Origin: Trichocoleus sp.
GTDB taxonomy: Bacteria; Cyanobacteriota; Cyanobacteriia; Elainellales; Elainellaceae
Assembly (NCBI GenBank): GCA_036702865.1
Contig: DATNQD010000053.1
Coordinates: forward strand, 1,611-41,610
DNA: 40,000 nucleotides
Direction of reading: 5' to 3'
Position 1 is the stretch's first letter; the number at the start of each line of letters is the position of its first letter. Below the pieces are notes generated by a model. That model searched no databases. It was not told the DNA's origin and worked only from the letters and a program-made list of their open reading frames with translations. Shown here piece by piece: positions 11,223 to 40,000 of the stretch. Made by a program: the position numbers and the translations under genes.

Positions 11223-11234
11223 GGGGCGAAAACT

Positions 11235-11330: not shown

Positions 11331-11466
11331 CCAAATGAGCGAGGACATGGAGCAGGAAACGTTTGGGGAAGCGGGACAACCTCGCAGTGATGAGATTGGT
11401 CAACTCTGCTGCAAGCTCTATCAGTTTGATAGCGGTGTCCAACCCATTTGGCGATCGCCAAGCTAA
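11308..11466 (+). CDS. small acidic ORF, part B (52 aa)
   Basis: This ORF is in frame +1 relative to part A. Translation: MTMTISYDQMSEDMEQETFGEAGQPRSDEIGQLCCKLYQFDSGVQPIWRSPS*. The track ORF 11095-11466 is this same frame, but its 5' part overlaps queE and is unlikely to be coding. Confidence 0.3.
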   Translation: MTMTISYDQMSEDMEQETFGEAGQPRSDEIGQLCCKLYQFDSGVQPIWRSPS

Positions 11467-11490
11467 TTACCCTTTACCGTGAGATGAACT

Positions 11491-14270: not shown

Positions 14271-14445
14271 AGGCAGGCTTATAGAACAATTGAATTACTA
14301 AGGGAGGGCAAAGCTTTCTGCTTGTCCGTGAAGTGTGTGTGAACAAAAAGACGACTCACCCGTCTTAGAGTGTTGAATTGCTTCAAGACGGGCACACTAG
14401 AGATAATACACTTCCGCCATCAGAATACTCCCTGTCTGGCAGGCC

Positions 14446-24950: not shown

Positions 24951-24959
24951 ACCTATTAA

Positions 24960-27900
24960 GTGAAGTTGATCATGGGTGATTCTATAGACAGTTTAGTTCG
25001 TGATTTCCTGAATTCTTTAGAGAAGTTGGAAATTCGCCTTCTTGCGTGGGGCGTGGTGGATATTAGGGGAGGCTTCAGGGAAGAAGAAATCATAGAGCTT
25101 GCCGAGAATTTTATTGAGGTACAGCAGGCTGAGATAGATCCAGTGGATCTTGTGGCAGAGTTAGTGAACCGATGCCTGTTAATTGAACTGAATTCAAGAA
25201 GCGATCGCATCTACCGAACTCGTATGGCTGAGGCAGTCCGTCTTTTTGCGCGACTGCGGCAACTTTTTCCCAATCGAGATTGGCAAACCTCTTCAACGCT
25301 GGTAGCAGACTATCGCTTCTCTTTACGACAGCGAGTTTACCCACGGCGCAGCATCAATCCAGAACAAGTTGTTCAACGGATCGAAACAGACAAGTTGCTG
25401 ACTCCCACTCAGCGTGATGCATTAGAGGCAATGTTGCGCTCGCCTAACCGCACTTTGGAACTGGCGGATTTTCAGCTTCGAGCTACTGCTCGCATGTTAC
25501 GGGATCTCAATAGCCCGAAAAGTCGCGGCATGATTGTTTGTGCAGGAACAGGAACAGGCAAGACTTTGGCGTTTTACTTGCCTGCCCTGACTTATATTGC
25601 CGGATTGGTGAGAAAAACATTTTGGACAAAAGCGATCGCCATTTATCCACGCAATGAACTGTTGAAGGATCAGTTTTCTGAAACTTATACTGAGGCGCGC
25701 CGTTTAGATTCAGTGCTTACTGCTCAAGGGCAACGCAAGATTTTGATTGGAGCCTTCTTTGGTTTAACTCCTATAGAAGCCACGCTAGAAGACAAACGAC
25801 TCAAGGAGAAATGGACATCAGAGCGGGATGGCTTCACTTGTCCTTACCTCCGTTGTCCGCAATGCAACGGGGCTTTAAGTTGGAAGCGGGAGGATGTAGC
25901 CAAACGCAAGGAGCAATTGACCTGTTTAGACCGTGACTGTGGCGTTGTGATTCGTGACGATGAAATTATTCTGACCCGCAATCGCATGACCAAGTTTCCC
26001 CCCGATCTACTTTTCACTACGACCGAGATGCTCAACCGCTTGATGGGCGATTCTCAATATGGGCACATTTTTGGTGTGGGAGCAGACAAGACACCGCAAA
26101 TTGTTCTGCTGGATGAAGTTCACACCTATACCGGAATTCATGGAGCACAGGTTGCCTATCTACTACGGCGTTGGCAGCATGTCGTTGGTAAGCGAGTTCA
26201 GTTCACTGGCTTGTCAGCGACGCTACGCAGTGCAACTGAATTTTTCACACAGCTTGTTGGTTTAGCACCAGGAGCAGTGGAAGAAATTTCTCCTGGTGAT
26301 GACATGCAACCGGAGGGCATGGAATACCTCTTAGCATTGCGAGGTGATCCTGTGTCAGGAACTAGCTTGCTTTCTACGAGCATCCAAGCAGCAATGCTGT
26401 TGAGGCGAGTCCTTGATCCCTCAACCGATCCTCCTAGCGATGGCACTTATGGTTCTCGTGTGTTTGCTTTCACCGATGACCTTGATGTCACCAATCGCCT
26501 CTATCACAACTTGCTGGATGCAGAAGGGCGTAATAGTCGGCAACAGCCAATCAAACAGCCTCTAGCAGCGTTGAGGAATCTTCATGACGACGATCGTCTT
26601 ATTGCTGGGCAGTCGTGGTCTTTATGCCGTGATATTGGGCATAACTTAACGACTCACTTACAGGTTAGTCGGACGAGTTCTCAAGATACTGGGGTTGATC
26701 GACAAGCCGATGTAATCGTAGCAACCGCAGCACTGGAAGTTGGGTTTAATGATCCTAATGTAGGAGCCGTGATTCAGCACAAAGCTCCTAAAGATATGGC
26801 ATCCTTTCTACAGCGTAAGGGACGAGCAGGACGTAGCAGGGCAATGCGTCCCTGGACGGTCGTGGTGCTGTCTGATTATGGGCGCGATCGCATTGCTTAT
26901 CAAAGCTACGACTTGCTGTTTGATCCCACCCTTGAAGAGCGATTACTTCCTATCGCCAACCGCTATGTTATTCGTATCCAAGCCACATTTGCTTGCATGG
27001 ACTGGATCGCACAGCAAATGCAACGTGCTCCCCAAGGGAGTATCTGGAAAGACTTTTCTAAGCCTTCTTCCTTCTCACCGCAGCAGCAGCGTCAGCAGCA
27101 AGCTAAAACGATAATTCAATCTATCCTTAAAAACGAAAAACAGCAGCAAGCTCTAGAAAGCTACCTTCAGTCTGCACTCAAGATTTCTTGGGGGGAGACA
27201 CAAGCCATTCTGTGGGGGCCTCCCAGAGCATTGATGACAGCGGTTTTACCCACCCTCCTCCGACGACTAGAGGCAAATTGGCAACGGCTCCCATTGCCAG
27301 GGGAACCCGAGTTGGACTATCACACGGACGATCCCTTACCTGACTTTGTACCGGCTAGCCTCTTTAGCGACTTATTACTACCTGAAGTTCGCATTGTTAC
27401 ACCTCCTGCCACCCAGCAGACGACAGAATCCGATGAATACTATCTACCGATCCTTCAGGCTCTCAAAACTTTTGCACCTGGGCGTGTTTCCCGGCGTTTT
27501 GGGGTGCAACGCAGCCAGATTAGCCATTGGATTGCACCACCTGAGTTGATCGCTGGACATCAGACTTTATTGATCGACCAATACTGTGCTGAGTTTGAGG
27601 AAGCTGGCACATTCCAGATTTGGCAGCAGGAAGGAGTTGCAAATATTCGCTGTATTCGTCCTTGGACACTGAGGGTTGCTCAGATTCCGTCGGAAGTTAG
27701 TGATAAATCGAATGCACAACTGCAATGGCATACACAAATTGTTCCACCAACCAGCGGCAATTCATTAGACTTACCTCAAGGATCGCTATGGTTAGAGATT
27801 GTTTCTGAGCTTTGTAGCTTTACTCATAACCAGCAAAATCCCTTAGAGGTAAGACGTTTTGCTCTGGGTTCTCAGGCAAATCTACGAGTCAAGCGCAATC

Positions 27901-29525
27901 GCCAGGTTCAAGAATTAGAAACATCGATTCAGTTTATTGAGGCTGAGAGTGGCAAACCCGCAGGAGTTGGATTTACTCAAACGGTGGATGGTTTGATATG
28001 CCGTTATCGGATTCCAGATGGTTTTACGATTAGCCTCGATGATGACAATCATGCCAAAGTCTATTCATTCCGCAGTTCTTACTTCAAACATCGTATTTTG
28101 CAGGATCCTCGCTTAGATGGAATTGCCAACATCTTCCAGAGAGGATGGTTGCACCAGATCTATCTGTCGATGCTGGTTGCCCGTGCTCTAGAAAGAGATA
28201 TTACCTTGCCTGAAGCTTTCGCAACGCTGCAAGCAGAAGGGGTAGGGCAAGCAATGATTGCGGTTCTAGATGGGATTTTTCAGACACTTGCCGTTGAAGA
28301 ACAAAATGACGAGGAGTTTGGAGGGGATTTGGGTGAAGATGAGGAACAACCAGACCCTCACTTGCCTCCTGGTCGTCAACCTACCCATGAAAGATTGCGG
28401 GAGCTGTGTAACACACCCCTCATTCAAGAGGTTTTGAATGATTTAGCACAAATTCTGTGGAATTCACCCGATGCCGTGTGGGATGAGTGGGCAAAACAGA
28501 GATTTAGTGCAACGCTAGGTGGTGCTTTATTAGAAGCCTGTCGTCAACTTTGCCCCCAGTTTGATTCGGGAGATTTGCTGCTGGATCTTGATCCTGGTCC
28601 GCGATCGCCTGATAGCCCTGCCCAACTTGAAGGCATTGAAGAAATCTGGTTGACCGAGGCAAGTCCAGGTGGCGGTGGTGTAATTGAGGAGATCTTGCAA
28701 CGCTATGCAGCAGATCCAGCAGGCTTTTTCAGATTAGTCGAGAGTGCGCTGGAACCTTCGGACTTTGAAATCATTGATTCAGAGTTGACAAATCTATTGG
28801 AGTTAACGGATTCAGATGACTCGATTTGTGATGCTCTCGCTCAGGTTCGAGGTGCAGAGTCCTATCAATCCTTAACGATCGCTAGTGAAAATCTGAGACG
28901 GACTTTGTCACATCGGGGTATCCTCGTCACGCCCACTGTAATGACAGCCGTTCATGCTCGCGTTTTGACTCCGGGCAGTAACGTTGAAACCGATCGCCAA
29001 TTGCTGAATCTGATTCGTGACTGGCAAGCAGAAGAAGATCGTTTAGGCATCGAGATTGATGCACGAGTGTTTGCTTACATCGCCAGCACTCAAAGCCGTT
29101 TCACGGATGCACTGCCGCCAGAAACGAGGAACAACCCTTATGTCTGCTTTCAGGTACTCTATGGTCGTTTGTGGCTCCGAGGCAGCTTAATTCGCAATCG
29201 AGCCATCTCGTTCTATAACCCGTTTGCGATCGTGCCAGAAGCCGATCGAGAAATCCTGCTAGATGTGCTGCAACCCGCAGAAAATGTGGTGAAGTTAGAG
29301 GAACCCAACTGGCGTGAGCAGGTTGATCAGGGATTAAAGACCGTAGGGGCTGTTTCCTTAATGGCGAAGTTGACTGATCGACAAGCCTTAAAGCGAGCCG
29401 CTTTGCAATTAATGACTGAACCCGTAGACGTTGGATTTCTCAATGTATACCCTGTTGTCGAAGGCTTCCGCAGAACTGTACAGGGATATATTGTGAGGTT
29501 ACGAATTCGGGAGGCAGTGCAATAA
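24960..29525 (+). CDS. dpdJ: giant DEVH-box helicase with inserted Cys-rich zinc ribbon, DpdJ homologue
   Basis: 1521 aa from GTG 24960 (an alternative start is ATG 24972). Motifs: AGTGTGKT (25542-25565), LLDEVHTY, GLSATL, VATAALEVGFNDPNVGAVIQH, QRKGRAGR. The Cys cluster CPYLRCPQC...CLDRDC is at 25839-25940. Confidence 0.65.
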   Translation: MKLIMGDSIDSLVRDFLNSLEKLEIRLLAWGVVDIRGGFREEEIIELAENFIEVQQAEIDPVDLVAELVNRCLLIELNSRSDRIYRTRMAEAVRLFARLRQLFPNRDWQTSSTLVADYRFSLRQRVYPRRSINPEQVVQRIETDKLLTPTQRDALEAMLRSPNRTLELADFQLRATARMLRDLNSPKSRGMIVCAGTGTGKTLAFYLPALTYIAGLVRKTFWTKAIAIYPRNELLKDQFSETYTEARRLDSVLTAQGQRKILIGAFFGLTPIEATLEDKRLKEKWTSERDGFTCPYLRCPQCNGALSWKREDVAKRKEQLTCLDRDCGVVIRDDEIILTRNRMTKFPPDLLFTTTEMLNRLMGDSQYGHIFGVGADKTPQIVLLDEVHTYTGIHGAQVAYLLRRWQHVVGKRVQFTGLSATLRSATEFFTQLVGLAPGAVEEISPGDDMQPEGMEYLLALRGDPVSGTSLLSTSIQAAMLLRRVLDPSTDPPSDGTYGSRVFAFTDDLDVTNRLYHNLLDAEGRNSRQQPIKQPLAALRNLHDDDRLIAGQSWSLCRDIGHNLTTHLQVSRTSSQDTGVDRQADVIVATAALEVGFNDPNVGAVIQHKAPKDMASFLQRKGRAGRSRAMRPWTVVVLSDYGRDRIAYQSYDLLFDPTLEERLLPIANRYVIRIQATFACMDWIAQQMQRAPQGSIWKDFSKPSSFSPQQQRQQQAKTIIQSILKNEKQQQALESYLQSALKISWGETQAILWGPPRALMTAVLPTLLRRLEANWQRLPLPGEPELDYHTDDPLPDFVPASLFSDLLLPEVRIVTPPATQQTTESDEYYLPILQALKTFAPGRVSRRFGVQRSQISHWIAPPELIAGHQTLLIDQYCAEFEEAGTFQIWQQEGVANIRCIRPWTLRVAQIPSEVSDKSNAQLQWHTQIVPPTSGNSLDLPQGSLWLEIVSELCSFTHNQQNPLEVRRFALGSQANLRVKRNRQVQELETSIQFIEAESGKPAGVGFTQTVDGLICRYRIPDGFTISLDDDNHAKVYSFRSSYFKHRILQDPRLDGIANIFQRGWLHQIYLSMLVARALERDITLPEAFATLQAEGVGQAMIAVLDGIFQTLAVEEQNDEEFGGDLGEDEEQPDPHLPPGRQPTHERLRELCNTPLIQEVLNDLAQILWNSPDAVWDEWAKQRFSATLGGALLEACRQLCPQFDSGDLLLDLDPGPRSPDSPAQLEGIEEIWLTEASPGGGGVIEEILQRYAADPAGFFRLVESALEPSDFEIIDSELTNLLELTDSDDSICDALAQVRGAESYQSLTIASENLRRTLSHRGILVTPTVMTAVHARVLTPGSNVETDRQLLNLIRDWQAEEDRLGIEIDARVFAYIASTQSRFTDALPPETRNNPYVCFQVLYGRLWLRGSLIRNRAISFYNPFAIVPEADREILLDVLQPAENVVKLEEPNWREQVDQGLKTVGAVSLMAKLTDRQALKRAALQLMTEPVDVGFLNVYPVVEGFRRTVQGYIVRLRIREAVQ

Positions 29526-29723: not shown

Positions 29724-31481
29724 ATGGTTTCTGCGTCTGTTAAATACAAAATTTGCAGAGACCCTATGCGATGCTTGACTAGTCCTAAGTTCCGAAGCAA
29801 TTTTTTGCAACGATTTTGCTTTTTGTTCACGCTACTGCTTACGTTTTGGGCTACTTTCTTTCCGATGAGCACCTTGGCGGCTAACACTTCATCAGTAGCT
29901 GAAGATGACAATGCCAGCAAGTTAGTCTACCTTAAGCAGGGTTGGAGTGAGGATGAGCGAGAGAAATACTACCGGACATATGAAGGATCTCAGCTAATTC
30001 CTTATGATTGGTTTCTAGCACTAGAGCAAGCATCAAATCAGGAGCAATTTCGAGCAGATAAGAACATAGAGCGATTTCGCTATTTGCCGAGTATCACGAA
30101 GTCACAACTCAATCCTGACAACTTACCAGTGGGATTTACGAAAGAACAGGATCCTAGAACAGGAACTTGGCTAGGTTTGAACTGTGCAGCCTGTCATACA
30201 GGTCAAATAAATTATCAAGGTAGAAGTGCCCGCATTGATGGTGCTCCAGCCTTAGCAGATTTCCCTGCTTTTAGCACAGCCATGGCTGAGTCTTTAAGAG
30301 CAACCTTGAAAAATAATGCCAAATTTGATCGTTTTGCTAAACATGTTCTAAATGAATCTGCCAACAAGCAACAAATACAAATACAAAGTTTGCACCGGGA
30401 CGTTCAACGGTTTACAGAAGATTTTGAAAGCTATCTAGAGCGGAATAAAGCACCTCATCCGTATGGCTACGGAAGATTGGATGCCTTGGGTATTTCTCTG
30501 AATGAAGTAACGGGCACTGCTATGCAGATTCCTAGCAATATCAGCCCACCTGAGGCTCCAGTGAGCTATCCTGCGCTTTGGCTAACACCAGAGTTGGAAT
30601 GGGTTCAGTGGAATGGTTCAGTCACTAATCCTTTAACCCGCAATGTTGGTCAAGCTTTGAGTGTTTTTGGTAAGGCTACTCTCTCAGGTCCGATCTTTGA
30701 TCACTTCAAATCAACTGTTTATGTAAGAAATTTATATGAGCTTGAGAAGCAAATCGGTCAACTTGAAGTACCCGTTTGGCCTGAAGAAATTTTAGGAACG
30801 ATAGACCGGACACAAGCAGTGCGAGGAGAAGCATTATTTCAGGTAAATTGTGCTTCTTGCCACGCTAATAAACCACCTTACCCCATGACATCTCCCAACC
30901 GATTTGGAAAATCTTTAATTAAGGTAGAACGAACCAAACTGGCAGATGTAGGAACTGACCCGATCGCAGCAGAGAGATTTGCAAAACGAGTGTCGAAAAC
31001 TGGAAATCTTGCGCCCTACTTTACGGGGCCTGATGGCCGACAGTTATCTGAGGTGCCGACGCCAACATTATTTGGTTTTATTGCCACTCTGGTTTCAGAG
31101 CGACAGCTCGACGAGTTACGACTCCTTAATGAAGAAAAAATTATGTATCGGGGTTATCGTGAACGCGTTTCTCCCGGAGACCTTCTAGCTTATAAGGCAG
31201 GTCCTCTTGCAGGAGTTTGGGCAACCGCACCATACTTGCATAATGGGTCTGTGCCCAATCTAAATCAACTTCTGCTTCCTTCTGAGAAGCGTGACAAGAC
31301 GTTCCATGTAGGTAGTCAGGAGTTTGATCCAGTTAACGTTGGGTTTAAGACAGAAGCATCTGCTGGCAGCATGGAATTTCAAACAACTCTTCCTGGAAAC
31401 TCTAATGCTGGTCATGAGTACGGCACTACCCTAAATGATGACGATCGACACGCTCTGATTGAGTACCTTAAAACGTTGTAA
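29724..31481 (+). CDS. secreted di-haem c-type cytochrome, CCP/MauG/RoxA-like
   Basis: There are two CxxCH haem-binding motifs: CAACH at 30183-30197 and CASCH at 30849-30863. The family-typical APYLHNGSVPNL is also present. The N-terminus is signal-peptide-like (FCFLFTLLLTFWATFFPMSTLA/AN), so the true start may be ATG 29766. Confidence 0.7.
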   Translation: MVSASVKYKICRDPMRCLTSPKFRSNFLQRFCFLFTLLLTFWATFFPMSTLAANTSSVAEDDNASKLVYLKQGWSEDEREKYYRTYEGSQLIPYDWFLALEQASNQEQFRADKNIERFRYLPSITKSQLNPDNLPVGFTKEQDPRTGTWLGLNCAACHTGQINYQGRSARIDGAPALADFPAFSTAMAESLRATLKNNAKFDRFAKHVLNESANKQQIQIQSLHRDVQRFTEDFESYLERNKAPHPYGYGRLDALGISLNEVTGTAMQIPSNISPPEAPVSYPALWLTPELEWVQWNGSVTNPLTRNVGQALSVFGKATLSGPIFDHFKSTVYVRNLYELEKQIGQLEVPVWPEEILGTIDRTQAVRGEALFQVNCASCHANKPPYPMTSPNRFGKSLIKVERTKLADVGTDPIAAERFAKRVSKTGNLAPYFTGPDGRQLSEVPTPTLFGFIATLVSERQLDELRLLNEEKIMYRGYRERVSPGDLLAYKAGPLAGVWATAPYLHNGSVPNLNQLLLPSEKRDKTFHVGSQEFDPVNVGFKTEASAGSMEFQTTLPGNSNAGHEYGTTLNDDDRHALIEYLKTL

Positions 31482-31613
31482 AGAGACAAGCACTGATCTT
31501 GTTGCCTACAACGTCGGGATAATGCTTTAAACCTGATTCGGTTAGTGATTACAAGAAGGATCATGAACTTCTTAATAATTCAATCAGCATGATACATGCC
31601 TTAAGGAACCTCT

Positions 31614-32381
31614 ATGCCGCAGATTGCCGTTGGTAACCTAACTGTTAATTATGAAATAAGGGGTAGTGGTCATCCTCTGCTAATGATCATGGGTTTGAGC
31701 TTTAGCCTGCTGGATTGGGGAGATGACCTGCCCAACGAACTGGCTAAACACTATCAGGTCATTCTCTATGACAATCGAGATGCTGGACTGACAACAAGTT
31801 CATCAGTGCAAGATTACACGATCGCTGACGTAGCAGATGATGCAGCAGGTTTGCTGCAAGCTCTCAATATCAAGCAAGCTCATGTTTTTGGTGTAAGCAT
31901 GGGAGGTATGGTTGCTCAGCAGTTTGCTTTAAGACATGCTGGCAAGCTTAACAAGTTAGTTCTGGGCTGCACGATGGCAGGTGGCAGTTGTAGCGTTCCG
32001 GCTAAACTCTCAAGTTTCACAAGGGGAAGTCTTCTGGATCTTCTGTTTACGCAATCATATTTGGCAGACGCCAGTAACAAGAGAAATGCAGAGGATTTTT
32101 TAGCGAATACATCTCCCTATCACAGCAAACAGGAAGGTTTGTATCGGCAGTTAAAGGCGATTTATTCACATGATACCTGTAATAGTCTGAGAACCATTAA
32201 GGCTCCTACGTTGATCATTACTGGTGATAGTGACGTAGTAATACCACCTGAAAACAGCGATGTCTTGAAGCAGAAAATTTCAGGTGCAGAGCTTGTCCCC
32301 CTCCTGAAAGATGGGAATCATGGGTTCCCATATAGCCATGCGATCGAAACGGCAAGTATATTGATCAATTTCTTAGGTTGA
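31614..32381 (+). CDS. alpha/beta-fold hydrolase
   Basis: 255 aa. It has HPLLMIMGLS, the nucleophile elbow HVFGVSMGGMVA (GxSxG), a late ITGDSDVV, and GNHGF. Confidence 0.85.
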   Translation: MPQIAVGNLTVNYEIRGSGHPLLMIMGLSFSLLDWGDDLPNELAKHYQVILYDNRDAGLTTSSSVQDYTIADVADDAAGLLQALNIKQAHVFGVSMGGMVAQQFALRHAGKLNKLVLGCTMAGGSCSVPAKLSSFTRGSLLDLLFTQSYLADASNKRNAEDFLANTSPYHSKQEGLYRQLKAIYSHDTCNSLRTIKAPTLIITGDSDVVIPPENSDVLKQKISGAELVPLLKDGNHGFPYSHAIETASILINFLG

Positions 32382-32453: not shown

Positions 32454-32617
32454 AACTTGCCAGTGAGGTGCGATTGCCAAGGATGTAAGCTTGTGAACCT
32501 AATGATAATTTTCTTCGCATAACCATTGCCAAGTCTTGTATTTTCCTAATGAACTCGATGACTCGATGATCTGAATCTTGATCTGTCCAGCTTTATGTAA
32601 TCAAAAAGGAAGTGTTT

Positions 32618-33388
32618 ATGGTAGAGATGAAAGTTAAGGCAGATAGCCTAAACCTGCGTAGGGCACCAGAAATCAGAGATGACAACATTATTACTGCTTT
32701 GGCTTTGGCTCAAGAGGTAAAAGTTTTAGGGGGAGCACCAACAGATAGGTTCTGGAAAGTTGAAACTATTGTTTCAGGTTCAACAATTCAAGGTTTTGTA
32801 AGTGCAGCCTTCTTGCGGCAACCTGTAAGTGACAAGAAAGAAGCCTTGATCGGTGCGGCGGTAAAAGAATGGCTTCGGTTTGAACGAGGCGATAAATTTG
32901 AATTTGATAATCCTCAATTTAAGTATGTTGGTGAATATTGGTCAAAAATTGGTCTAAATCTTGATGGTCGTGATAGAGATCAACCTTGGTCGGCGGCATT
33001 TATTTCCTTTGTTGCTCGATCTGCTGGCTATAGTAATTTCAAGTTTGCAGCTGCTCACTCGACATATGTTTATGATGCTGTAGATAAGCGTAGAGCAAAT
33101 GATGCAACAGCCCCTTTCTGGGGATTTGATGTTAATGAGCATAAGCCTCAACTTGGTGATCTAGTTTGCCGCGGGCGAGATGGAGTTAGTATCACCTCCA
33201 TGTCTTCTCTACCAAGCGGAGGCTTTAAAAGTCATTGTGACATCGTAGTTGACATTAAGGATACGGAAGTACGAACACTTGGAGGTAATGTAAGTCAATC
33301 CGTGTCAATAACTTCATACCCACTAAATAGCAGTGGCTTTTTGAGACAGGTGAATAGTGTATATGGCGTTCTAAGGAACAATTTTTGA
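32618..33388 (+). CDS. SH3b + DUF2272-like (NlpC/CHAP-related) putative wall hydrolase, no signal peptide
   Basis: I prefer ATG 32618, which is 6 nt after AGGAAG; the track start 32612 is a GTG. The SH3b module is VKADSLNLRRAP...FWKVE...QGFVSAAFL. The C-terminal region reads PWSAAFISFVARSAGY...AAHSTYVYDAV...GDLVCRGR...SHCDIVVDI...LGGNVSQSV, as I recall for DUF2272. Confidence 0.65.
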   Translation: MVEMKVKADSLNLRRAPEIRDDNIITALALAQEVKVLGGAPTDRFWKVETIVSGSTIQGFVSAAFLRQPVSDKKEALIGAAVKEWLRFERGDKFEFDNPQFKYVGEYWSKIGLNLDGRDRDQPWSAAFISFVARSAGYSNFKFAAAHSTYVYDAVDKRRANDATAPFWGFDVNEHKPQLGDLVCRGRDGVSITSMSSLPSGGFKSHCDIVVDIKDTEVRTLGGNVSQSVSITSYPLNSSGFLRQVNSVYGVLRNNF

Positions 33389-33428
33389 ATGCTTTAGAGT
33401 CCGAGACAACAAATCTTCATGCTGCAAA

Positions 33429-33454
33429 GGTGACAAACGCTCTGGTTTGTCACC
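33429..33454 (+). terminator. perfect 10-bp stem hairpin 40 nt after the stop (terminator or RNA-stability element)
   Basis: GGTGACAAAC (33429-33438), loop GCTCTG, then GTTTGTCACC (33445-33454). An A-rich rather than U-rich tract follows, so this is not a textbook intrinsic terminator. Confidence 0.3.
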
Positions 33455-33507
33455 AAACAAAGACAAAGATTAATTCAGTTTTATATCCAGATAACCACTT
33501 TTAAGTC

Positions 33508-34383
33508 ATGCAATCTTTTCAAGTCATCTCTGGTGGATTAAATCTTCGTTCTGCTCCAAGTGATACCATTATTGCTGTTCTTTCCAGGGGACACGTCGTA
33601 ATAAAAATTGAAGAGGCAACAGACAGCAAGTGGTGGAAAGTGCGAACCTTCTTTGGTGGAGAGACTTTAGAAGGATATGTAGCTGCTAGATTTCTAAGTT
33701 CAACTTCTACTTTTCCCATTGAAACCCTTCTAGAAATTGGTGGAATTTCTATTAAAAGAGCAAGTGGTGAATCTGCTTTCTTGTATCAAGCAGGTATGAG
33801 CATCAATGCTGATGGTGCACCTAATGCCTATCATCCAGCAGATACAGGTATTGATTTTCTAGCAAATGCTGGCTACCCAGGTAATTGGTGGGCTTTAGCT
33901 GTAGATAGAGATGGAGATCCATTTATTCAAAGTAACAGTGATCCATTTCCTGGGTATTATGTCTCCACAACCGCCCTACTTGATGCCAGTTTCAATAAAC
34001 AAGATCCACGTCGCTATGTAGATTCTCTAAAGATTCCATACATTGTTCTCCCTGGAAATGGTGATTTTAGAAGAGCTACAGGTGTTCAGCTTGGAGATTT
34101 CGCCGTTGCTTTCAACAACAGTAATCAACAGTTGGCTTTTGCAATCTATGCTGATGTAGGTCCTAAAAATCAAATAGGAGAAGGATCGATAGCCTTATCC
34201 CAAGCTCTTGGAAATGATCCATTTCTACGTGGACGAGTTAGACGAGGAATTGCTAGAGGAATTACTTATATTGTTTTTCCGGATTCTGGCAATGGAAAAC
34301 CAAGAAAAGTTTCAGAGATAGAAACTGAAACAAAACAGCTATTTGAGATGTGGGGTGGTATAGACCGTATTAAATCTATGTAG
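33508..34383 (+). CDS. SH3b + GH75 chitosanase-like domain protein, no signal peptide
   Basis: 291 aa. The SH3b module is VISGGLNLRSAP...WWKVRT...EGYVAARFL. The C-terminal region reads SINADGAPNAYHP...PYIVLPG...GDFAVAF...AIYADVGPKNQIGEGSIALSQALG, which resembles the GH75 (PF07335) core as I remember it. Confidence 0.6.
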   Translation: MQSFQVISGGLNLRSAPSDTIIAVLSRGHVVIKIEEATDSKWWKVRTFFGGETLEGYVAARFLSSTSTFPIETLLEIGGISIKRASGESAFLYQAGMSINADGAPNAYHPADTGIDFLANAGYPGNWWALAVDRDGDPFIQSNSDPFPGYYVSTTALLDASFNKQDPRRYVDSLKIPYIVLPGNGDFRRATGVQLGDFAVAFNNSNQQLAFAIYADVGPKNQIGEGSIALSQALGNDPFLRGRVRRGIARGITYIVFPDSGNGKPRKVSEIETETKQLFEMWGGIDRIKSM

Positions 34384-34550
34384 CTACAAACAAGCGATTA
34401 GAGGAGGTTATGAAAATTAACCGGATCAACCTTTTGTAAATTGAAACTGCAAACCTATGACTATTGCATTGTCATGGAGTTTAGTCAACTCTCTACAAAT
34501 TTAGACGAAGAAGATAAGCAGTTTAACATAAGGATCAACCAGGAGTAAAA

Positions 34551-35276
34551 ATGTCTACTTTTAGCCTAAGTGGAAGTGTGGGAAAGGGTGGAGTCAATAA
34601 TTCAGCAGACGTTCTAGTTGTGAAAAGTCAATTGGCAGATCTAGGTTTTCCCGTGTCAAAAGATTCGGTTATGAATGCCAACACGATCGCCATCATTAAG
34701 CTCTTTCAATCTATCATTAGAGGTGAAGTTAGGATTCTAGGAGATGGTCGGGTAGACAGAGACGGGCCCACCCATAAGTTTCTTCAGGCAGCCAACGCTC
34801 CTCGATGGATGGAGATGCCAGATGGTTCTGATGCTGAAGGCTTTATTAACCATGACAAGCGCCAAGGTGATAATCACGATTTTGGCACTAGTTGGATGAT
34901 CGAAACCATTCAAGCCGCTGCTCAGCTTTATCTAACAAATTATCGTTCCAGAAACCCTGGTGCTGCTGTCATTCAGACTAATAACCTTAGTCTACCCAAG
35001 GGTGGTGATACTCCCATTCACGCAACCCATGAAACCGGATTATCCTGCGACATTCGTGTACCTCGAAAAGATGGTGGAGCAGGAACTACCATAGATGATC
35101 GTGCTACATATGATCGCGAGGCTATGAGAGCCATGCTAAAAGCCATTCGAGGACAAACCAAATATGGCATTAAGCGAATTTATTTCAATGACTTCACTCT
35201 CATAACAGAGGGGCTTTGTAAAGAATTGGCTGGTCATCATAACCATGCTCATATTGATATCATTCCACCTCAATGA
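34551..35276 (+). CDS. PG-binding-like N-domain + LAS-type zinc metallopeptidase (MepA/M74-like), no signal peptide
   Basis: 241 aa, with AGGAG at 34541-34545. HATHETGLSCDIRV and GHHNHAHIDI give the LAS H-x(3-6)-D plus H-x-H zinc signature and resemble the MepA HxSHQxGLDxD motif. The N-terminal VLVVKSQLADLGFPV...IIKLFQ is PG_binding_1-like. Confidence 0.6.
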   Translation: MSTFSLSGSVGKGGVNNSADVLVVKSQLADLGFPVSKDSVMNANTIAIIKLFQSIIRGEVRILGDGRVDRDGPTHKFLQAANAPRWMEMPDGSDAEGFINHDKRQGDNHDFGTSWMIETIQAAAQLYLTNYRSRNPGAAVIQTNNLSLPKGGDTPIHATHETGLSCDIRVPRKDGGAGTTIDDRATYDREAMRAMLKAIRGQTKYGIKRIYFNDFTLITEGLCKELAGHHNHAHIDIIPPQ

Positions 35277-37075
35277 GTTTAAGATTTGTCGTTGAGTTAG
35301 AACAAAATGAAGAAATCGTTTTTGTTCGCTCAGGAACAATTCTTTTCAGAACTAGAGACCCATGTAATTTTGAAGTTGCTGAGGCAATTATGATGGATCA
35401 ATTTAGAGTAAATACTGCTGGACTCAATCTACGTTCATCACCTGTCGTAGAGTCTACTAATATCCTGTTAACCCTTTCTAATGGACAGATTGCAACAAAA
35501 CTAACGGCAGCTTCCGATGACTGGTGGGAGGTTTCAGCTGTTATTAGTGGTCAGACGTTTCAAGGTTTTGTTGCTAGCAGATTCCTAATCCCTTTGGAGG
35601 TAACTCTTGCTGGCATTGCTACTGGTATTAAAAGCCTAAGTTTTGATGAACTTAAACAAAATAAGCAACTTGTTGTTGAAATTCAGAAGAAATTGAGAAA
35701 CTTGGGGCTTTATCCTGGTGGTTCATGGATTGATGGGATTTTAGGCAGTCAAAACAGTCGGACGTGGAAAGCACTACAACAATTCAGCGTAGCCTTTTCT
35801 TTGAGCGCACCTACTACAAATGATGCAATTAATCCTAGCTTGGCTCAAGCTTTACTGGATAAGCAACAAATTCCATCTATTCTAGATGAGGCAAAAAATA
35901 CCAGGAGTGTATTGAATAAGCTGACTGATATCCAATCAAATACCCCAGTCTCTGGATATCCTCTAGCTTTTCTAGATAGAACGATTAAGAATTCACCTTT
36001 TGAGCAGGAGGTCAAAAAATATCCTGTTAATTTAGCCCGACAACCAGACGGGACAGCTCTTGTATCCTATGGTAAGACATTTCGATTAACAGGATCAGGA
36101 ACGACTGTAACCTTTGAGGATTACCCTGCTAAGGGTTTTCTCCCTAATGTTGATGGCACTGGGCTTGATTTCCTTGACGATAGTATTGAACATGCCTGTG
36201 TCTGTGTAGGCAGCTTTGTTGCTGGTGATGATGAAATTAAAACCCATTGGTTAGGAAAAAAATCCCTTGTAGAAGTAGAGTTTCTTAGCTCCACTAAATT
36301 TATTGGGGTACTCAACACAATTTGCCAATTAAATACAGATCATCCTAACTGTGATGTTGACAACTGTGTTATTGGCTTTGGCCCTGGAAACAAGCGCTAT
36401 GGCTTCTCAGCCCTAGTAGAAGATATACTAACCTACGCTGAGAAAATAGGGGCTTCCAATTCTATCGCTGCGATGTTTAAGCGGTTTTCTACCCGTAAAG
36501 GATTAGAGGACTGGACTATCGCTATAACAGGAAATCAGGGCTTATCGTTCAGAGGCTACTATGGAGCTGCTTTTCCTCCCTTCATTGGTTCTCCCATTCT
36601 CTTTGACACAACCTTAACAGGTAACCAGCGTGTTCTTGAAGCTGAGCCAGAAGTTGGCAGTGGTCCTAATTCCATCTCGGCTTATGATCTCGTGCGGCTG
36701 ATATCTATGTTGGGTTGGCACCTCCATCTTCCTAAAGGTGTCAGATTGCCAGGGGCGCAGTGGAATAGCCTGGAGAGCGTTGTCAGAGCAATGGGTGTTG
36801 ACACTGCTCGGTATGTTGATATTGCTCTAGAGACTTTGGGGCTAGTAAATGTCGTGAGTGAGCCAGTCATCATCTCTAAATTAGGGTTAGGGAACTCTGC
36901 CTTGACTTACGTTGCTCTTGTCAAACTAGTTGATAATCGTCAAACCCCCGCCAAACTCAGAACTTTAGCCATGTCTCTATGGACTAGTCCGGGCTCAGAC
37001 GTTAATCGTGACAACAACATGGCAGCAGCCGTAACCGAGATTATGCGAAGAGTCTTCACAGAAGAGTTGGCATAA
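35273..37075 (+). CDS. SH3b + PG_binding_1 + beta-lactamase/PBP-like serine hydrolase domain protein, no signal peptide
   Basis: 600 aa from ATG 35273, which makes an ATGA overlap with the upstream stop. An alternative start is ATG 35390, which follows GAGG and would put the SH3b module at the extreme N-terminus as in the paralogues. SH3b: NTAGLNLRSSP...WWEVSA...QGFVASRFL. PG_binding_1: VVEIQKKLRNLGLYPGGSWIDGILGSQ. C-domain motifs: SSTK (36287-36298), SNSIAAM, KLGLG (from 36878). Confidence 0.6.
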   Translation: MSLRFVVELEQNEEIVFVRSGTILFRTRDPCNFEVAEAIMMDQFRVNTAGLNLRSSPVVESTNILLTLSNGQIATKLTAASDDWWEVSAVISGQTFQGFVASRFLIPLEVTLAGIATGIKSLSFDELKQNKQLVVEIQKKLRNLGLYPGGSWIDGILGSQNSRTWKALQQFSVAFSLSAPTTNDAINPSLAQALLDKQQIPSILDEAKNTRSVLNKLTDIQSNTPVSGYPLAFLDRTIKNSPFEQEVKKYPVNLARQPDGTALVSYGKTFRLTGSGTTVTFEDYPAKGFLPNVDGTGLDFLDDSIEHACVCVGSFVAGDDEIKTHWLGKKSLVEVEFLSSTKFIGVLNTICQLNTDHPNCDVDNCVIGFGPGNKRYGFSALVEDILTYAEKIGASNSIAAMFKRFSTRKGLEDWTIAITGNQGLSFRGYYGAAFPPFIGSPILFDTTLTGNQRVLEAEPEVGSGPNSISAYDLVRLISMLGWHLHLPKGVRLPGAQWNSLESVVRAMGVDTARYVDIALETLGLVNVVSEPVIISKLGLGNSALTYVALVKLVDNRQTPAKLRTLAMSLWTSPGSDVNRDNNMAAAVTEIMRRVFTEELA

Positions 37076-37099
37076 AGATACCATTCCTCATTAATTTAG

Positions 37100-38029
37100 G
37101 TGACACCCATGGCAGAAAGATTTGTAGTTACTACTGATGGTCTCAATTTTCGCTCTGCTCCTGAAGTAGATCCCAGTAACGTCCTGGCTGTACTTCCCAA
37201 CGGACAAGTTGTGATGAAGTTGGAAGTTGCAACCGATCAGGACTGGTGGAAAGTCTCAACAATAATTGGTGGACAGGAAACCGCAGGTTTTGTTTCTCAA
37301 AAGTTTTTAGCTCCTGCAGCGTACAAAGTAATTGCTGATAGTCTGAACTTAAGATCGACCCCTATTAAGGCTCCAGATAATTTGATAACAGCCTTACCCA
37401 GAGGTCAAATTGTTGAAAAACTAGAAGTTGCGACCGATCAGGACTGGTGGAAAGTAATTACTAGCATAGTTACTACTACTGGATCTAGCGAGGAAATAGA
37501 AGGTTATGTAAACAGCCGCTATCTAGCGACGGTCAACGATCCCTTTGAAGGTAAGAAAGTAGTTGGAATGGATAATACCAGCCAAAACTTTAGAGATAAA
37601 GTTGCACAAATTGCAGATCGTTTAGGAACCAAGCCTATCTACTTGATGGCAGTAATGAGCTTTGAAACGGGTGGTACATTCTCTCCTAGCATAAAGAACC
37701 GCGTGAGCGGGGCAACTGGTTTAATCCAGTTCATTGGTTCTACAGCCCGAGGTTTAGGAACCTCCCTATCGGCTTTAGCTAGTATGACTGCCTTGGAACA
37801 GTTGGATTACGTTGAGAAGCATCTAAAACCGTTTAAGGGGCACCTGCTAACCTTGGAAGACGCTTATATGGCTGTTTTACTCCCTGCTGCAGTAGGAAAG
37901 GGCAGAAACCATGTGCTCTTCGAGGAAGGATCTATTGAGTACGACCAAAATCGGGGGCTTGATATCAATGACAATGGAAAGATAACAGTTGCAGAAGCTG
38001 CTAATAAAGTTGCTTCCAGAATTATTTAA
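37100..38029 (+). CDS. 2x SH3b + SLT/lysozyme-like transglycosylase domain protein, no signal peptide
   Basis: 309 aa from GTG 37100 (an alternative start is ATG 37109). It carries two SH3b modules, each containing LEVATDQDWWKV. The C-terminal region reads LMAVMSFETGGTF...SGATGLIQFIGSTARGLG, the E...GLxQ pattern of lytic transglycosylase/lysozyme-like domains. Confidence 0.7.
   Translation: MTPMAERFVVTTDGLNFRSAPEVDPSNVLAVLPNGQVVMKLEVATDQDWWKVSTIIGGQETAGFVSQKFLAPAAYKVIADSLNLRSTPIKAPDNLITALPRGQIVEKLEVATDQDWWKVITSIVTTTGSSEEIEGYVNSRYLATVNDPFEGKKVVGMDNTSQNFRDKVAQIADRLGTKPIYLMAVMSFETGGTFSPSIKNRVSGATGLIQFIGSTARGLGTSLSALASMTALEQLDYVEKHLKPFKGHLLTLEDAYMAVLLPAAVGKGRNHVLFEEGSIEYDQNRGLDINDNGKITVAEAANKVASRII
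37223..37455 (+). repeat. intragenic direct repeat marking a tandem SH3b duplication
   Basis: GAAGTTGCAACCGATCAGGACTGGTGGAAAGT (37223-37254) and GAAGTTGCGACCGATCAGGACTGGTGGAAAGT (37424-37455) are 31/32 identical and 201 nt (67 codons) apart. The rest of the two modules is much more diverged. Confidence 0.85.
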
Positions 38030-38077
38030 TTAGTTCCTTGTTGCTTAAAAGTAAAACTGCTACTGAAACTTCTCATC

Positions 38078-38137
38078 ATGACAATCCTAAAGGTTAAAGC
38101 GGATAGTCTAAATCTTCGTAACTCATTTTTGAATTAG
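38078..38137 (+). pseudogene. 19-codon relic of an SH3b module N-terminus
   Basis: ATG ACA ATC CTA AAG GTT AAA GCG GAT AGT CTA AAT CTT CGT AAC TCA TTT TTG AAT TAG translates to MTILKVKADSLNLRNSFLN*. KVKADSLNLR is identical to the start of the 32618 gene product (MKVKADSLNLRRAP) but uses different synonymous codons. It lies in the spacer upstream of the GHL10 gene, in another frame. Confidence 0.5.
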
Positions 38138-38187
38138 CAAAAAAATCAAAGGATTGCTTCCCTTTATAAGTTCAATTGGAGTTTTTC

Positions 38188-39579
38188 ATGAAAAGAGTAC
38201 GTGGCGTTTGGTTAACTAACGTTGCTAGTGATGTCTATGAATTTAAAGACAGTATCAATCAAGCGATCGAGCTTTTGGCTAAAACTGGATTTAACGTCGT
38301 TTTTCCAGTTGTCTGGAACAAGGGACACACACTTTATGAGAGTGATGTAATGGAGCGACATTTTGGACCTGGTTTCAAAATCGATCCGGCACACCAGGCA
38401 ACAGGACGAGATCCTCTTGCTGAGATTGTTGAAGCAGCTAAAAAATATAAATTAAAAGTCATTCCCTGGTTTGAGTATGGTTTTGCTGCCTCTGCGGTTC
38501 AGAAAACCGCTGCGGGAGGTTTGCGGGAATTTGGTGAACATATTCTTCAGAAGAAACCCAATTTCGCGGCTGTTGATCATACTGGCAAGCCATTAATCAA
38601 GCCTCATCCTAAAAATGTGGGTGATATAGGCTTTAAATGGATGAATGCACTCAATCCTGAGGTTCAAGCTTTCATGATTGAACTCATAGTTGAGGTTGTT
38701 CAGAAGTATGACGTTGATGGGATACAAGGTGACGATCGGCTTCCTGCATTCCCTGTAGAAGGATTTGATCAAGATGCTGCAACTCGCTTTGCCCCAAGTG
38801 GCGCTAAACCTACAGCTACAAATACAAAATGGATGGAATTTCGTGCTGATATTCTGACTAAGTTTTTGAAGGAGCTTTGTGACCAGGTTAGACAAGTAGG
38901 AACAAGTAAGGGCAAGAAACTCCTTATATCTATGGCTCCCCATCCGAGAGGCTTTGGATTTAGAGAGTATCTTCAAGATACCAAAGCGTGGCTTGATCTA
39001 ATTGATATGATGCACCCACAACTCTATCGTAGAACACCTGATGATTTACATGATGCAAGTGGAAGGTTAATCACAAATGGTTACATCAATTTAGCTAATT
39101 TAGAACTTCAGGGTCTACGTGCCGATCAAGTTGCTAAAATCTCGCCCGGAATTCTGATGAAGGAGGGAGACGACTACCGAATTAGCAACACGTATCTTGA
39201 CAAAGCTGTTAAGCACAACCGTACCAAGAAATTAGCTGGAGAGGTATTCTTCTTCTTTGAAGGTTTGAGAAAACCAAATGATTCGACAGCAAAGATTCTC
39301 CGAGATCCTCTTTACTCTGTTATCAAATTGGATGATGAAGGCCCAGATGTGGTAAAACTTCAAAAACTTCTCAAAAATCTAAGCAAACCAGAATTTGATC
39401 CAGGGGAACCTGATGGTATTTTTGGGACAAAAACAGAAGAAGCAGTCAAAGCTTATCAGAAGAGCCAATTTCCATCATCACCAAGTGACATTGATGGGAA
39501 GGTAGGAGGGAGAACCCTAGCAAAGCTAGGCTTTGCTAGCTTAAATGCCTTTGGAGAGAAGCTAGATTTACTAGATTGA
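38188..39579 (+). CDS. GHL10 (DUF187, glycoside-hydrolase-like family 10) + C-terminal PG_binding_1 protein, no signal peptide
   Basis: I prefer ATG 38188, which is 6 nt after GGAG (38178-38181); the track start 38176 is a TTG. RGVWLTNVASDV...LAKTGFNVVFPVVWNKGHTLYES...KVIPWFEYGF...DGIQGDDR is the GHL10/YngK-like TIM-barrel pattern. The C-terminal VVKLQKLLKNL...PDGIFGTKTEEAVKAYQ is PG_binding_1. Confidence 0.7.
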   Translation: MKRVRGVWLTNVASDVYEFKDSINQAIELLAKTGFNVVFPVVWNKGHTLYESDVMERHFGPGFKIDPAHQATGRDPLAEIVEAAKKYKLKVIPWFEYGFAASAVQKTAAGGLREFGEHILQKKPNFAAVDHTGKPLIKPHPKNVGDIGFKWMNALNPEVQAFMIELIVEVVQKYDVDGIQGDDRLPAFPVEGFDQDAATRFAPSGAKPTATNTKWMEFRADILTKFLKELCDQVRQVGTSKGKKLLISMAPHPRGFGFREYLQDTKAWLDLIDMMHPQLYRRTPDDLHDASGRLITNGYINLANLELQGLRADQVAKISPGILMKEGDDYRISNTYLDKAVKHNRTKKLAGEVFFFFEGLRKPNDSTAKILRDPLYSVIKLDDEGPDVVKLQKLLKNLSKPEFDPGEPDGIFGTKTEEAVKAYQKSQFPSSPSDIDGKVGGRTLAKLGFASLNAFGEKLDLLD

Positions 39580-39609
39580 TTACTGAAATACCAACCAGTT
39601 CGTTGAGAG

Positions 39610-39653
39610 TGAAAGAGGTTTATGCTCACAGTCACAAGTATAAACCTCTTTTA
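39610..39653 (+). terminator. rho-independent terminator candidate closing the hydrolase operon
   Basis: AAGAGGTTTAT (39613-39623) pairs perfectly with ATAAACCTCTT (39640-39650). The stem can be extended by A-T, G-U and T-A pairs to 39610/39653. The loop is 16 nt, and the 3' arm runs into CTCTTTTAG (a U-run). It begins 31 nt after the stop at 39579. Confidence 0.5.
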
Positions 39654-39715
39654 GTAAAATTCAACCTCTTCTAATGTCTAAAAGTATTTAGCCTATTGAT
39701 TTAGAGATAGAGAAT

Positions 39716-40000
39716 ATGACCGATCAACTTGTTCCACATCAAGCCGAAGTAATTCAAAACAATGGTTTGGATCACATAGATGAACAGACAATCATAATGG
39801 AAGCACAATCTTTCAAAGATTTTCAGAAAGCTGTACATGATTTTCAAGAGAAGCGTATCAGAAGGCTACGCCGCGTTAATCAAGGATGGAATATTGGCTT
39901 AACGGCTGCTGGTATAACCTGTACCCTACTCACAACTGTTCTTGGCGTAGTTGATGTTAACAATGATATAGTTCAAGGCTGGATCAAGGTTGGCACAGGA
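39716..40000 (+). CDS. hypothetical membrane protein, 5' portion (runs off the window)
   Basis: The ATG at 39716 opens a frame that stays open for 95 codons to the window end. Translation: MTDQLVPHQAEVIQNN...FQEKRIRRLRRVNQGWNIGLTAAGITCTLLTTVLGVV..., a basic stretch followed by one clear hydrophobic helix. It is not in the ORF track, presumably because it has no stop in the window. Confidence 0.4.
   Translation, partial: MTDQLVPHQAEVIQNNGLDHIDEQTIIMEAQSFKDFQKAVHDFQEKRIRRLRRVNQGWNIGLTAAGITCTLLTTVLGVVDVNNDIVQGWIKVGTG

Follow-up and report, generated by a model that had tools for sequence, protein, structure and literature searches.

A mobile battery of leaderless wall-hydrolase genes in cyanobacteria as a candidate self-lysis cassette

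A 40,000-nucleotide stretch of DNA from the cyanobacterium Trichocoleus sp. (assembly GCA_036702865.1, contig DATNQD010000053.1, positions 1,611 to 41,610 of the forward strand), here called the window, carries at positions 32612-39579 six same-strand genes, P1 to P6, whose products each combine a wall-binding module with a different predicted wall-cleaving domain, and none of which has a recognisable export signal. The question raised by this locus, here called the battery, is what a cell does with a whole set of wall enzymes that have no evident way of reaching the wall. The answer tentatively favoured below, with a probability somewhat short of even, is that P1 to P6 make up an accessory and horizontally mobile self-lysis cassette of endolysin type that does not belong to a prophage and whose enzymes would reach the wall when the membrane is breached.

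Open reading frames (ORFs) were called at maximal length, extended to the first start codon after the upstream stop, and the six genes of the original prediction were all present on the forward strand. P1 (32612-33388) encodes an N-terminal SH3b and a DUF2272 papain-like domain of the NlpC/P60 clan, P2 (33508-34383) an N-terminal SH3b and a GH75 glycosidase domain with a double-psi beta-barrel (DPBB) fold, and P3 (34551-35276) an N-terminal PG_binding_1-like three-helix bundle and a MepA-like LAS zinc peptidase. P4 (35390-37075, maximal ORF from 35273) consists of an SH3b, a PG_binding_1-like module, a helical linker and a domain with the fold of serine beta-lactamases and penicillin-binding proteins (PBPs), P5 (37100-38029) of two N-terminal SH3b and a phage-type lytic transglycosylase domain, and P6 (38176-39579) of a GHL10 TIM-barrel glycosidase domain of the Cwp19-type lytic transglycosylase family followed by a C-terminal PG_binding_1. 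The true starts of P1, P5 and P6 are likely ATG 32618, ATG 37109 and ATG 38188, respectively. Judging by its close homologs, which are ~561 amino acids long and do not conserve the 39 residues ahead of M40, P4 probably starts at M40 (35390). The gene order stood as originally described, with spacers of -4 to 168 nt, but the 4-nt overlap (-4) between P3 and P4 is doubtful, since P4 likely starts at 35390. Five intact SH3b copies in four proteins (P1, P2, P4, P5), as first counted, were recovered both by cross-matching and in a clean alignment on the common motif LN[LF]R..P ... WW.V ... G[FY]V.

The spacers of the battery (24-167 nt) contained no holin-like or immunity-like small ORF and no plausible non-overlapping small protein, which agrees with the initial observation that interleaved immunity genes are missing. 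Besides the catalytic domains, Pfam identified only SH3_3 and PG_binding_1 in the battery, and no PAAR, MIX, LXG or Rhs; PADLOC models matched neither the six proteins nor three candidate membrane partners. A strong hairpin noted at the end of the battery was confirmed on the forward strand at 39610-39653 (17-bp stem, 10-nt loop, then a U-rich stretch), where the region 39575-39720 folds with a minimum free energy of -33.3 kcal/mol vs -23.0 +/- 3.7 for shuffled sequences (z = -2.8). It is a probable terminator or attenuator. A simple terminator scan had passed over it because its loop exceeds 8 nt, and promoter and terminator scans of the window gave chance-level results. The search for riboswitches and other RNA regulators returned none, and tRNAs and tandem repeats were likewise not found. 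A twister-P3 ribozyme match on the reverse strand inside P5 (37722-37809; 22.4 bits vs a gathering score of 39.9, E 0.76) is most likely due to chance.

Leaders were assessed with a hydrophobicity heuristic, the best 12-residue Kyte-Doolittle mean within the first 70 residues. This value was 1.18-1.90 for P1-P6 vs 2.22 for a neighbouring signal-peptide protein encoded at 29724. As the ORFs were already maximal, longer N-termini are impossible for P1-P6, and since none of them has an N-terminal hydrophobic segment, hidden leaders were ruled out; the claim that all six proteins are leaderless thus held for the maximal ORFs.

The six catalytic labels first proposed also hold, including those of P3 (LAS/MepA-like) and P4 (beta-lactamase-like), which Pfam missed, and by domain assignment the set spans glycan-cleaving and peptide-cleaving chemistries. 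Alignments place the known catalytic residues intact in all six domains and none looks degenerate, a possibility raised with the original prediction; all six are presumed active on this ground. P1 matched Pfam DUF2272 (PF10030) with 105.2 bits vs a cutoff of 27 (E 4.9e-30) and endolysin families in PHROGs at 2e-5; its SH3b region cross-matched P2, P4 and P5, and its putative triad of S127, H208 and N226 was invariant across 14 battery homologs. DUF2272 is a papain-like family of the NlpC/P60-CHAP group in which a conserved Ser replaces the nucleophile Cys, and it has been grouped with amidase effectors of the type VI secretion system (T6SS) such as Tse1 (PMC10318531).

In P2, Pfam identified SH3_3 (3e-10) and Glyco_hydro_75 (PF07335; 1.2e-10, 42.3 bits vs a cutoff of 27), and residues 76-290 matched the solved viral GH75 chitosanase V-Csn (7tvl) at E 8e-48. 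The equivalents of the V-Csn catalytic residues D36, D148 and E157 are kept as NADG, ADVGP and IGEGS; N at the first position of the GH75 D-D-D-E signature, as in the NADG of P2, is a variant reported by the V-Csn authors. The SH3b fusion and the gene context suggest wall glycan as the substrate. P3 had no Pfam match (E < 0.01) and no NCBIfam match in the window protein itself, and its homologs carry Pfam PF03411, PF01471 or PF13539, the last on a Nostoc battery neighbour. Its AlphaFold2 (AF2) model (pLDDT 96) gave MepA (1tzp/1u10) as the top Foldseek match at 5e-6, followed by Hedgehog-N domains, and the LAS motifs H160-x6-D167 and H232-A-H234 were invariant in 34 homologs. By its predicted fold and its motifs, P3 is a MepA-like LAS metallopeptidase.

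P4 had no Pfam or NCBIfam match, and its PDB sequence matches were confined to the SH3 domain. In the AF2 model, built from 35 homologs (pLDDT 92, pTM 0.87), the C-terminal domain matched class A beta-lactamases (Foldseek probability 1.0, E 8e-6, TM to target ~0.6, 12-14% identity), and the invariant S300-x-x-K303 and K497-L-G499 lie on the helix and strand where these motifs are expected; in place of the canonical SxN, the second motif has an invariant S356-N357 pair. By sequence, P4 is an isolated family with 125 representatives among 1.84 billion proteins and is unlinked to canonical beta-lactamases or PBPs. On the evidence of the model it is a new small family with a beta-lactamase fold that is not filed as beta-lactamase. 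More than 250 homologs were collected, and all named source organisms were cyanobacterial.

For P5, Pfam placed SH3_3 on two stretches (1.3e-14) and SLT below its cutoff (E 0.009, 16 bits vs 21.3). The C-terminal domain matched a 'lytic transglycosidase' in the PDB (9udh) at 6e-42 and the lytic transglycosylase domain of the ejection protein gp28 of Anabaena cyanophage A4 (9k2v) at 1e-10. The catalytic domain shares ~52% identity with the small lytic transglycosylases that Pseudomonas and Xanthomonas phages encode as stand-alone proteins, and P5 also matched baseplate hub and internal protein families in PHROGs (1e-44 to 9e-48). The Glu of its 'FETG' motif aligns with solved lytic transglycosylase relatives and is, from what is known of SLT enzymes, presumably catalytic. 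P6 matched Pfam GHL10 (PF02638; 159.4 bits vs a cutoff of 27.9, E 1.5e-46) and PG_binding_1 (9.5e-12), its peptidoglycan-binding part matched endolysin PHROGs, and the whole matched Cwp19 (5oq2) at 1.8e-5, with D195/D196 of Cwp19 kept as GDD and Q295/Y297 as PQLY. Cwp19, a GHL10 protein of C. difficile, is a peptidoglycan lytic transglycosylase that drives autolysis, and these active-site residues were proposed for it (PMC6016235).

The battery recurs well beyond Trichocoleus. P4 relatives were present in 242 species representatives and were found here only in cyanobacteria; among the best 80 P4 loci, 78 belonged to named cyanobacteria and the other two to metagenome-assembled genomes (MAGs), and the nearest P4 in the genome collection, from a Synechococcales MAG, was 70% identical to that of the window. 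When the neighbourhoods of 88 P4 loci were compared, the clustering seen in the window proved to be conserved in other cyanobacteria. Related batteries occur at ≥ 16 independent loci, that is at least 16, and comprise in many genomes 3 to ~14 wall-hydrolase-like genes of variable content. The close relatives of the window share a core of P3-like, P4 and P5-like genes with variable GH75, DUF2272, GHL10 and SH3b-DUF4127, and a related block was found in Nostoc, Scytonema and some Synechococcales. The battery of Allocoleopsis contains Amidase_3, Glucosaminidase+LAS, SH3b+3D, DUF2272, P4 and DUF3616, and those of Microcystis and Snowella (10-14 genes) add Amidase_2, LysM-SLT, SH3b-Rv2525c-like, Lipase_3, 3D and DUF4127. 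Because the largest batteries sit in these two unicellular genera, and a P4 locus also in Cyanobium, the filament-specific roles first suggested (necridia, septal nanopores, hormogonia) are unlikely. An acidobacterial P3 homolog, considered as a possible battery outside cyanobacteria, turned out to be a lone gene amid housekeeping genes. Battery homologs are named in databases only as 'hypothetical' or 'peptidoglycan-binding protein', and full-text searches of the literature brought up no account of such batteries, the P4 family or leaderless SLH/SH3b hydrolase clusters in cyanobacteria, in line with the initial remark that no operon of this composition was known.

Two lineages stand out in how their proteins are built. 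Several loci of Microcystis and Snowella (L016-L018, L020, L021, L028) encode DUF2272, GHL10, DUF4127 and one other protein that share an N-terminal module of ~70-100 amino acids, with a motif like 'TLKALVNTVIK...', in the place where the lineage of the window uses SH3b. Many Microcoleus genomes (L046-L088, ~8600-11270) encode a leaderless P4 of ~410 amino acids that comprises the catalytic domain only and lies directly downstream of a cytochrome c oxidase (cta) operon and of a small variable ORF.

Each genome has its own flanks around the battery, with transposases, an ABC transporter, catalase and toxin-antitoxin genes among them. As they vary from genome to genome, the battery itself is the conserved unit. 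An eight-gene block of Nostoc lies on a chromosome (L007) and again on the 41-kb plasmid pNPM5 (L100, Nostoc sp. N6), there beside NB-ARC and NACHT NTPase genes, a VapC toxin gene and an integrase. The neighbourhoods are often of conflict type (Dpd, CHAT, NB-ARC/NACHT, toxin-antitoxin) and transposases flank some batteries; the battery is an accessory, mobile module. No secretion-system genes were seen among the Pfam-annotated neighbours of the surveyed loci. The Dpd, CHAT and trypsin genes upstream of the battery in the window, to which the original prediction had tentatively linked it, were rejected as partners because the flanks are not conserved, and are neighbours only. Small genes upstream of the L001 and L007 batteries are IS110-type transposase fragments and not holins or peptides.

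On pNPM5 (L100, 40-13428) the battery is preceded on the same strand by a 1213-amino-acid NB-ARC STAND NTPase and by proteins of 197 and 599 amino acids, the latter with a signal peptide, and NACHT and pentapeptide-repeat genes are close by. From this layout, STAND NTPases may be linked to battery regulation.

The missing leaders are a property of the batteries in general. By the same heuristic, 104 of the 112 wall-enzyme-like proteins across 16 distinct battery loci are leaderless, and no leader was detected in P4 (0/16), DUF2272 (0/13), GHL10 (0/11) or LAS (0/8) proteins. A few battery members carry unmistakable signal peptides, so the test, though crude, does pick them up. Distant relatives within the P4 family bear Sec or Tat-like signal peptides, and one of them (P0322), with a signal peptide, two SH3b and the P4 domain, is an exported form of the P4 architecture of the window. 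In three species, leaderless P4 homologs of ~700 amino acids carry two or three SLH domains from residue 10-21 onwards (Pfam E 1e-31 to 1e-38; L035 9380-11497, L072 424-2508 and L086 9362-11443, all without a signal peptide). SLH domains tether a protein to polymers linked to peptidoglycan, such as occur in the walls of cyanobacteria. Such leaderless SLH proteins are unexpected, because SLH domains work in the periplasm or wall. Together, the exported P4 relatives, the SLH-bearing leaderless P4 forms and the endolysin-type modules indicate that the envelope is the intended workplace and that the leaderless state is specific and derived. The N-terminal SH3b is in itself no proof of wall targeting, because in the recycling enzymes AvPCP and YkfC it helps to build the active site (PMC4600125).

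The window contained no recognisable phage genes, and neither a set of 50,697 phage genomes nor one of 2.9 million viral contigs gave a match to P4; a prophage origin of the whole block was rejected on the absence of P4 from these collections. Neither a prophage nor a secretion locus that would explain the battery was found, in agreement with the original prediction. Single modules do have phage relatives. An IMG/VR contig (L092, 9245-10726) encodes a leaderless protein of 493 amino acids composed of a GH24 lysozyme, a linker, PG_binding_1 and a P3-type LAS peptidase, so that the P3-type module is the C-terminal half of this GH24 fusion. From its domains it looks like a bifunctional endolysin. 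By analogy, the GH75 'chitosanase' auxiliary genes of phages may likewise be wall lysins. In the modular endolysins of phages with Gram-negative hosts, the binding module is N-terminal and the catalytic domain C-terminal.

For the enzymatic activity, cytoplasmic storage, trigger and physiological outcome of the battery, we infer the following course. Each protein would bind the wall through its SH3b or PG_binding_1 and cut it with its own catalytic domain, glycan strands being cleaved by P5, P6 and possibly P2, and stem peptides or cross-links by P1, P3 and P4. Made without leaders, the enzymes would fold and accumulate in the cytoplasm, barred from their substrate by the cytoplasmic membrane, and would reach the sacculus only on membrane permeabilisation. 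The trigger could be a holin-like protein with two transmembrane helices (2-TM) encoded downstream, or membrane damage by stress, phage or defence effectors. Once at the sacculus, the enzymes would quickly dissolve the cyanobacterial wall, which is thick and highly cross-linked, and the outcome would be regulated self-lysis, of the programmed cell death or ghost-cell type. In stress-induced ghost cells of Anabaena, peptidoglycan and outer membrane were lost in 88/88 cells examined, independently of contractile injection systems (CIS), and the executioner enzymes of this ghost-cell lysis are not known (PMC8894136).

The 2-TM gene (39716-40000, forward strand, truncated by the window end; ~145 amino acids with a charged C-terminal tail) starts 137 nt 3' of P6 on the same strand. 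The original statement that the window has no holin, portal, tail or secretion gene was borne out for phage and secretion genes, but 'no holin' was too strong in view of this ORF. Its full-length homologs (P0241-P0245) have 143-146 amino acids, a hydrophilic N-terminus, two hydrophobic helices and an acidic/basic tail of ~55 residues, a holin-like or SLATT-like layout that makes it a candidate membrane gate. In an unrelated contig (L095/L096), the family comes immediately after two leaderless genes of the same strand, VanY+PG_binding_1 and PG_binding_1+GH19-like, and a leaderless lipase-like gene follows. As a sign of a gate this is suggestive but weak: the family is small, with only five homologs, and a metagenome scan added just one locus. 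Different membrane proteins close other batteries, namely F16/F78 in Microcystis and a Synechococcales MAG, and F22 in a second MAG. A universal membrane gate was therefore rejected, as three unrelated membrane families follow batteries, others are followed by none, and there is no enrichment over controls.

One such membrane protein was found after P4 in Microcystis (L017, 11541-12542) and after the battery in an unrelated Synechococcales MAG (L027, 13130-14773). It has a conserved N-terminal transmembrane helix 'IFIYL..SLI.SE.QE' and a C-terminal 'GAPFWFDIL.K', and no match in Pfam, PADLOC or PHROGs.

Several observations weigh against self-lysis, and some of them concern the gate. The 2-TM family had no match in Pfam, PADLOC or PHROGs, including any holin family, the strong hairpin separates its gene from P6, and in L099 a member lies beside a TIR-like gene and away from peptidoglycan genes. 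Same-strand multi-TM genes were near 7/20 battery loci (two lineages) vs 30/69 controls. Others concern the enzymes. The closest characterised relative of P2, V-Csn, cuts chitosan and not peptidoglycan, and no DUF2272 member has been biochemically characterised (PMC10318531), which makes the peptidoglycan activity of P1 only a prediction. Some batteries also encode proteins that are no wall hydrolases (lipases, DUF3616 and DUF4127), and the solitary short P4 of Microcoleus and Calothrix implies some P4 function outside the battery. Finally, self-lysis has no obvious need for six to fourteen different enzymes, and diversification and shuffling are more typical of weapons.

A rival that would accommodate this last point, although unlikely on balance, is an antibacterial or anti-microbial arsenal, a cytoplasmic store freed by lysis of some cells or by an unrecognised export route that attacks the walls of competitors or epibionts, while the outer membrane of the producer shields its own wall and makes immunity proteins unneeded. 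The content of the battery is variable, shuffled and accessory, the module is mobile, and the window spacers lack immunity genes. Its DUF2272 domain belongs to the grouping with T6SS amidase effectors such as Tse1, lipases occur in some batteries as they do in T6SS effector sets, P2 is closest to a true chitosanase, suggesting non-self polymers, and different lineages share differing N-terminal modules across their battery members. Yet a secretion apparatus or trafficking domain (PAAR, MIX, LXG, Rhs) was seen in no locus, and the SLH anchors on some P4 forms indicate a cyanobacterial-type wall as the target. The outer membrane of Gram-negative bacteria would block external enzymes and limit their reach to Gram-positives or damaged cells, and release would still need lysis of the producer.

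That the battery remodels the cell's own wall, as housekeeping or conditionally, after leaving the cytoplasm by a non-lytic route such as a type 10 secretion-like holin channel, is rather improbable. That leaderless wall hydrolases and chitinases can be exported with the help of holins and without lysis is documented and provides a precedent, the 2-TM gene adjoins the battery here as other membrane proteins do elsewhere, and exported P4 relatives exist. Against this, no membrane partner is conserved, the patchy accessory distribution and the plasmid-borne block fit poorly to housekeeping, and a growing cell with redundant lytic activities in its periplasm would be in danger.

Improbable, too, is cytoplasmic catabolism of imported peptidoglycan fragments (recycling or scavenging), in which SH3b and PG_binding modules would serve substrate recognition. 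The cyanobacterial AvPCP and the YkfC enzymes are SH3b-NlpC/P60 proteins specific for free stem peptides (PMC4600125), an AmpD-like Amidase_2 occurs in Microcystis batteries, a sugar-type ABC transporter lies directly upstream of the L003 battery, and the whole-protein pTM of 0.87 for P4 suggests fixed inter-domain packing. The lytic transglycosylases (P5, P6, LysM-SLT), however, need polymeric glycan, which is absent from the cytoplasm, and SLH and LysM modules bind the polymeric wall; lipases and the exported P4 relatives do not fit, and no transporter is conserved beside batteries.

The batteries might also serve cell-autonomous immunity, with cytoplasmic enzymes attacking the walls of invaders such as endobiotic predatory bacteria or parasite rhizoids, but we consider this very improbable. 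It would fit the lack of export and of immunity genes, the wall-binding modules, the diverse specificities, including chitosanase-type enzymes and lipases, and the accessory, mobile status in conflict-type neighbourhoods, and an obligate intracellular bacterial predator of cyanobacteria, Candidatus Cyanoraptor togatus, is documented (PMC9385608). If true, it would be a prokaryotic counterpart of eukaryotic cytosolic anti-bacterial immunity. However, the known prey of Cyanoraptor, Microcoleus, lacks a battery and has its short P4 only as a lone gene, the SLH anchors indicate cyanobacterial-type walls, and no sensor or regulator is associated.

Scarcely credible is that the proteins are cargo of a CIS or other secretion machine encoded elsewhere in the genome: leaderless peptidoglycan hydrolases are common T6SS and CIS effectors, CIS are widespread in cyanobacteria (PMC8894136) and the shared N-terminal modules could serve as loading signals, but CIS or T6SS genes were near none of the 16 battery loci, cognate immunity genes and known effector marker domains are missing, and the N-terminal modules are ordinary folded wall-binding domains.

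The self-lysis cassette is the reading with the fewest assumptions. For cyanobacterial self-lysis, as in bloom collapse, programmed cell death and ghost cells, the battery offers concrete, testable candidates: a mobile, cyanobacteria-specific module of up to ~14 leaderless wall-degrading enzymes with a possible membrane gate. It also contains, in P4, a new small family with a predicted beta-lactamase fold fused to SH3b, PG_binding_1 or SLH, and its leaderless SLH proteins call for explanation. If active on cyanobacterial walls, the enzymes could become tools for lysing hard-to-break cyanobacteria or for bloom control.

The remaining genes of the window are of other kinds. Directly upstream of the battery and on the same strand, 29724-32381 encodes a RoxA-like di-haem cytochrome c (585 amino acids, with a signal peptide) and an alpha/beta hydrolase, neither of which is conserved beside batteries elsewhere. 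A complete-looking Dpd system (7-deazaguanine DNA modification/restriction) occupies 10183-29525, with queD at 10183, queE at 10584 and queC at 11491, followed by a 692-amino-acid fusion (12192-14270) of an N-terminal DpdC/DUF6884-like and a C-terminal DpdA (TGT-like) part and then by DpdE, DpdF, DpdH and DpdJ; small genes at 20285-21160 and 24243-24950 are probably DpdG and DpdI. Between 4508 and 9830 lie genes of conflict or programmed cell death type, for a CHAT (caspase-like) protease, a divergent trypsin-like protease of 654 amino acids and a pentapeptide-repeat protein of 704 amino acids. At 779-3087, a 415-amino-acid protein with a match to PADLOC PDC-M30A (2e-19) and a weak GMT-like winged helix-turn-helix is directly followed by a radical-SAM protein, and the two may be a candidate defence gene pair. 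An HNH nuclease gene (21-383) and a small XRE-type helix-turn-helix gene on the reverse strand (3323-3541) were also present.

Each enzyme family of the battery is known already, and by analogy its logic resembles that of a holin-endolysin cassette. P6 shares with Cwp19 a GHL10 domain with conserved active-site residues and a wall-binding domain, but Cwp19 is a single surface protein with a signal peptide and CWB2 repeats that acts in stationary-phase autolysis (PMC6016235), whereas P6 is leaderless, carries PG_binding_1 and is one of six enzymes. The peptidoglycan effector sets of the T6SS (Tae/Tge/Tle) are similar in being leaderless amidases, glycosidases and lipases of diverse specificity; the battery differs in having no adjacent immunity genes, secretion apparatus or trafficking domains, and in carrying wall-binding modules, which are normally absent from T6SS effectors. 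AvPCP and YkfC also join an N-terminal SH3b to a papain-like wall peptidase and are found in cyanobacteria, but they are single Cys-His enzymes acting on free stem peptides, whereas P1 has Ser replacing Cys and SH3b is here fused to five different catalytic folds, including lytic transglycosylases. In the explosive cell lysis of Pseudomonas aeruginosa, the endolysin Lys of the pyocin cluster reportedly lyses a subpopulation under host regulation. Like the battery as read here, it is a chromosomal endolysin serving regulated lysis of its host, but it is a single enzyme in a tailocin cluster with its own holin, whereas the battery has many enzymes and no tail genes. Phage holin-endolysin cassettes (e.g. 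phiKZ gp144) have in common with the battery leaderless wall hydrolases with an N-terminal peptidoglycan-binding and then a catalytic domain; P5, P3, P1 and the binding domain of P6 have direct phage-lysin relatives, and the battery adjoins a gene for a small 2-TM protein with a charged tail. In contrast to the single enzyme of a phage lysis cassette, the battery has six, and elsewhere up to ~14. Its 2-TM protein matches no holin family and stands behind a hairpin, no spanin was seen, no phage genes are nearby and P4 is missing from the phage and viral collections; unlike a phage cassette, the battery has been inherited and moved as a chromosomal or plasmid module of cyanobacteria.

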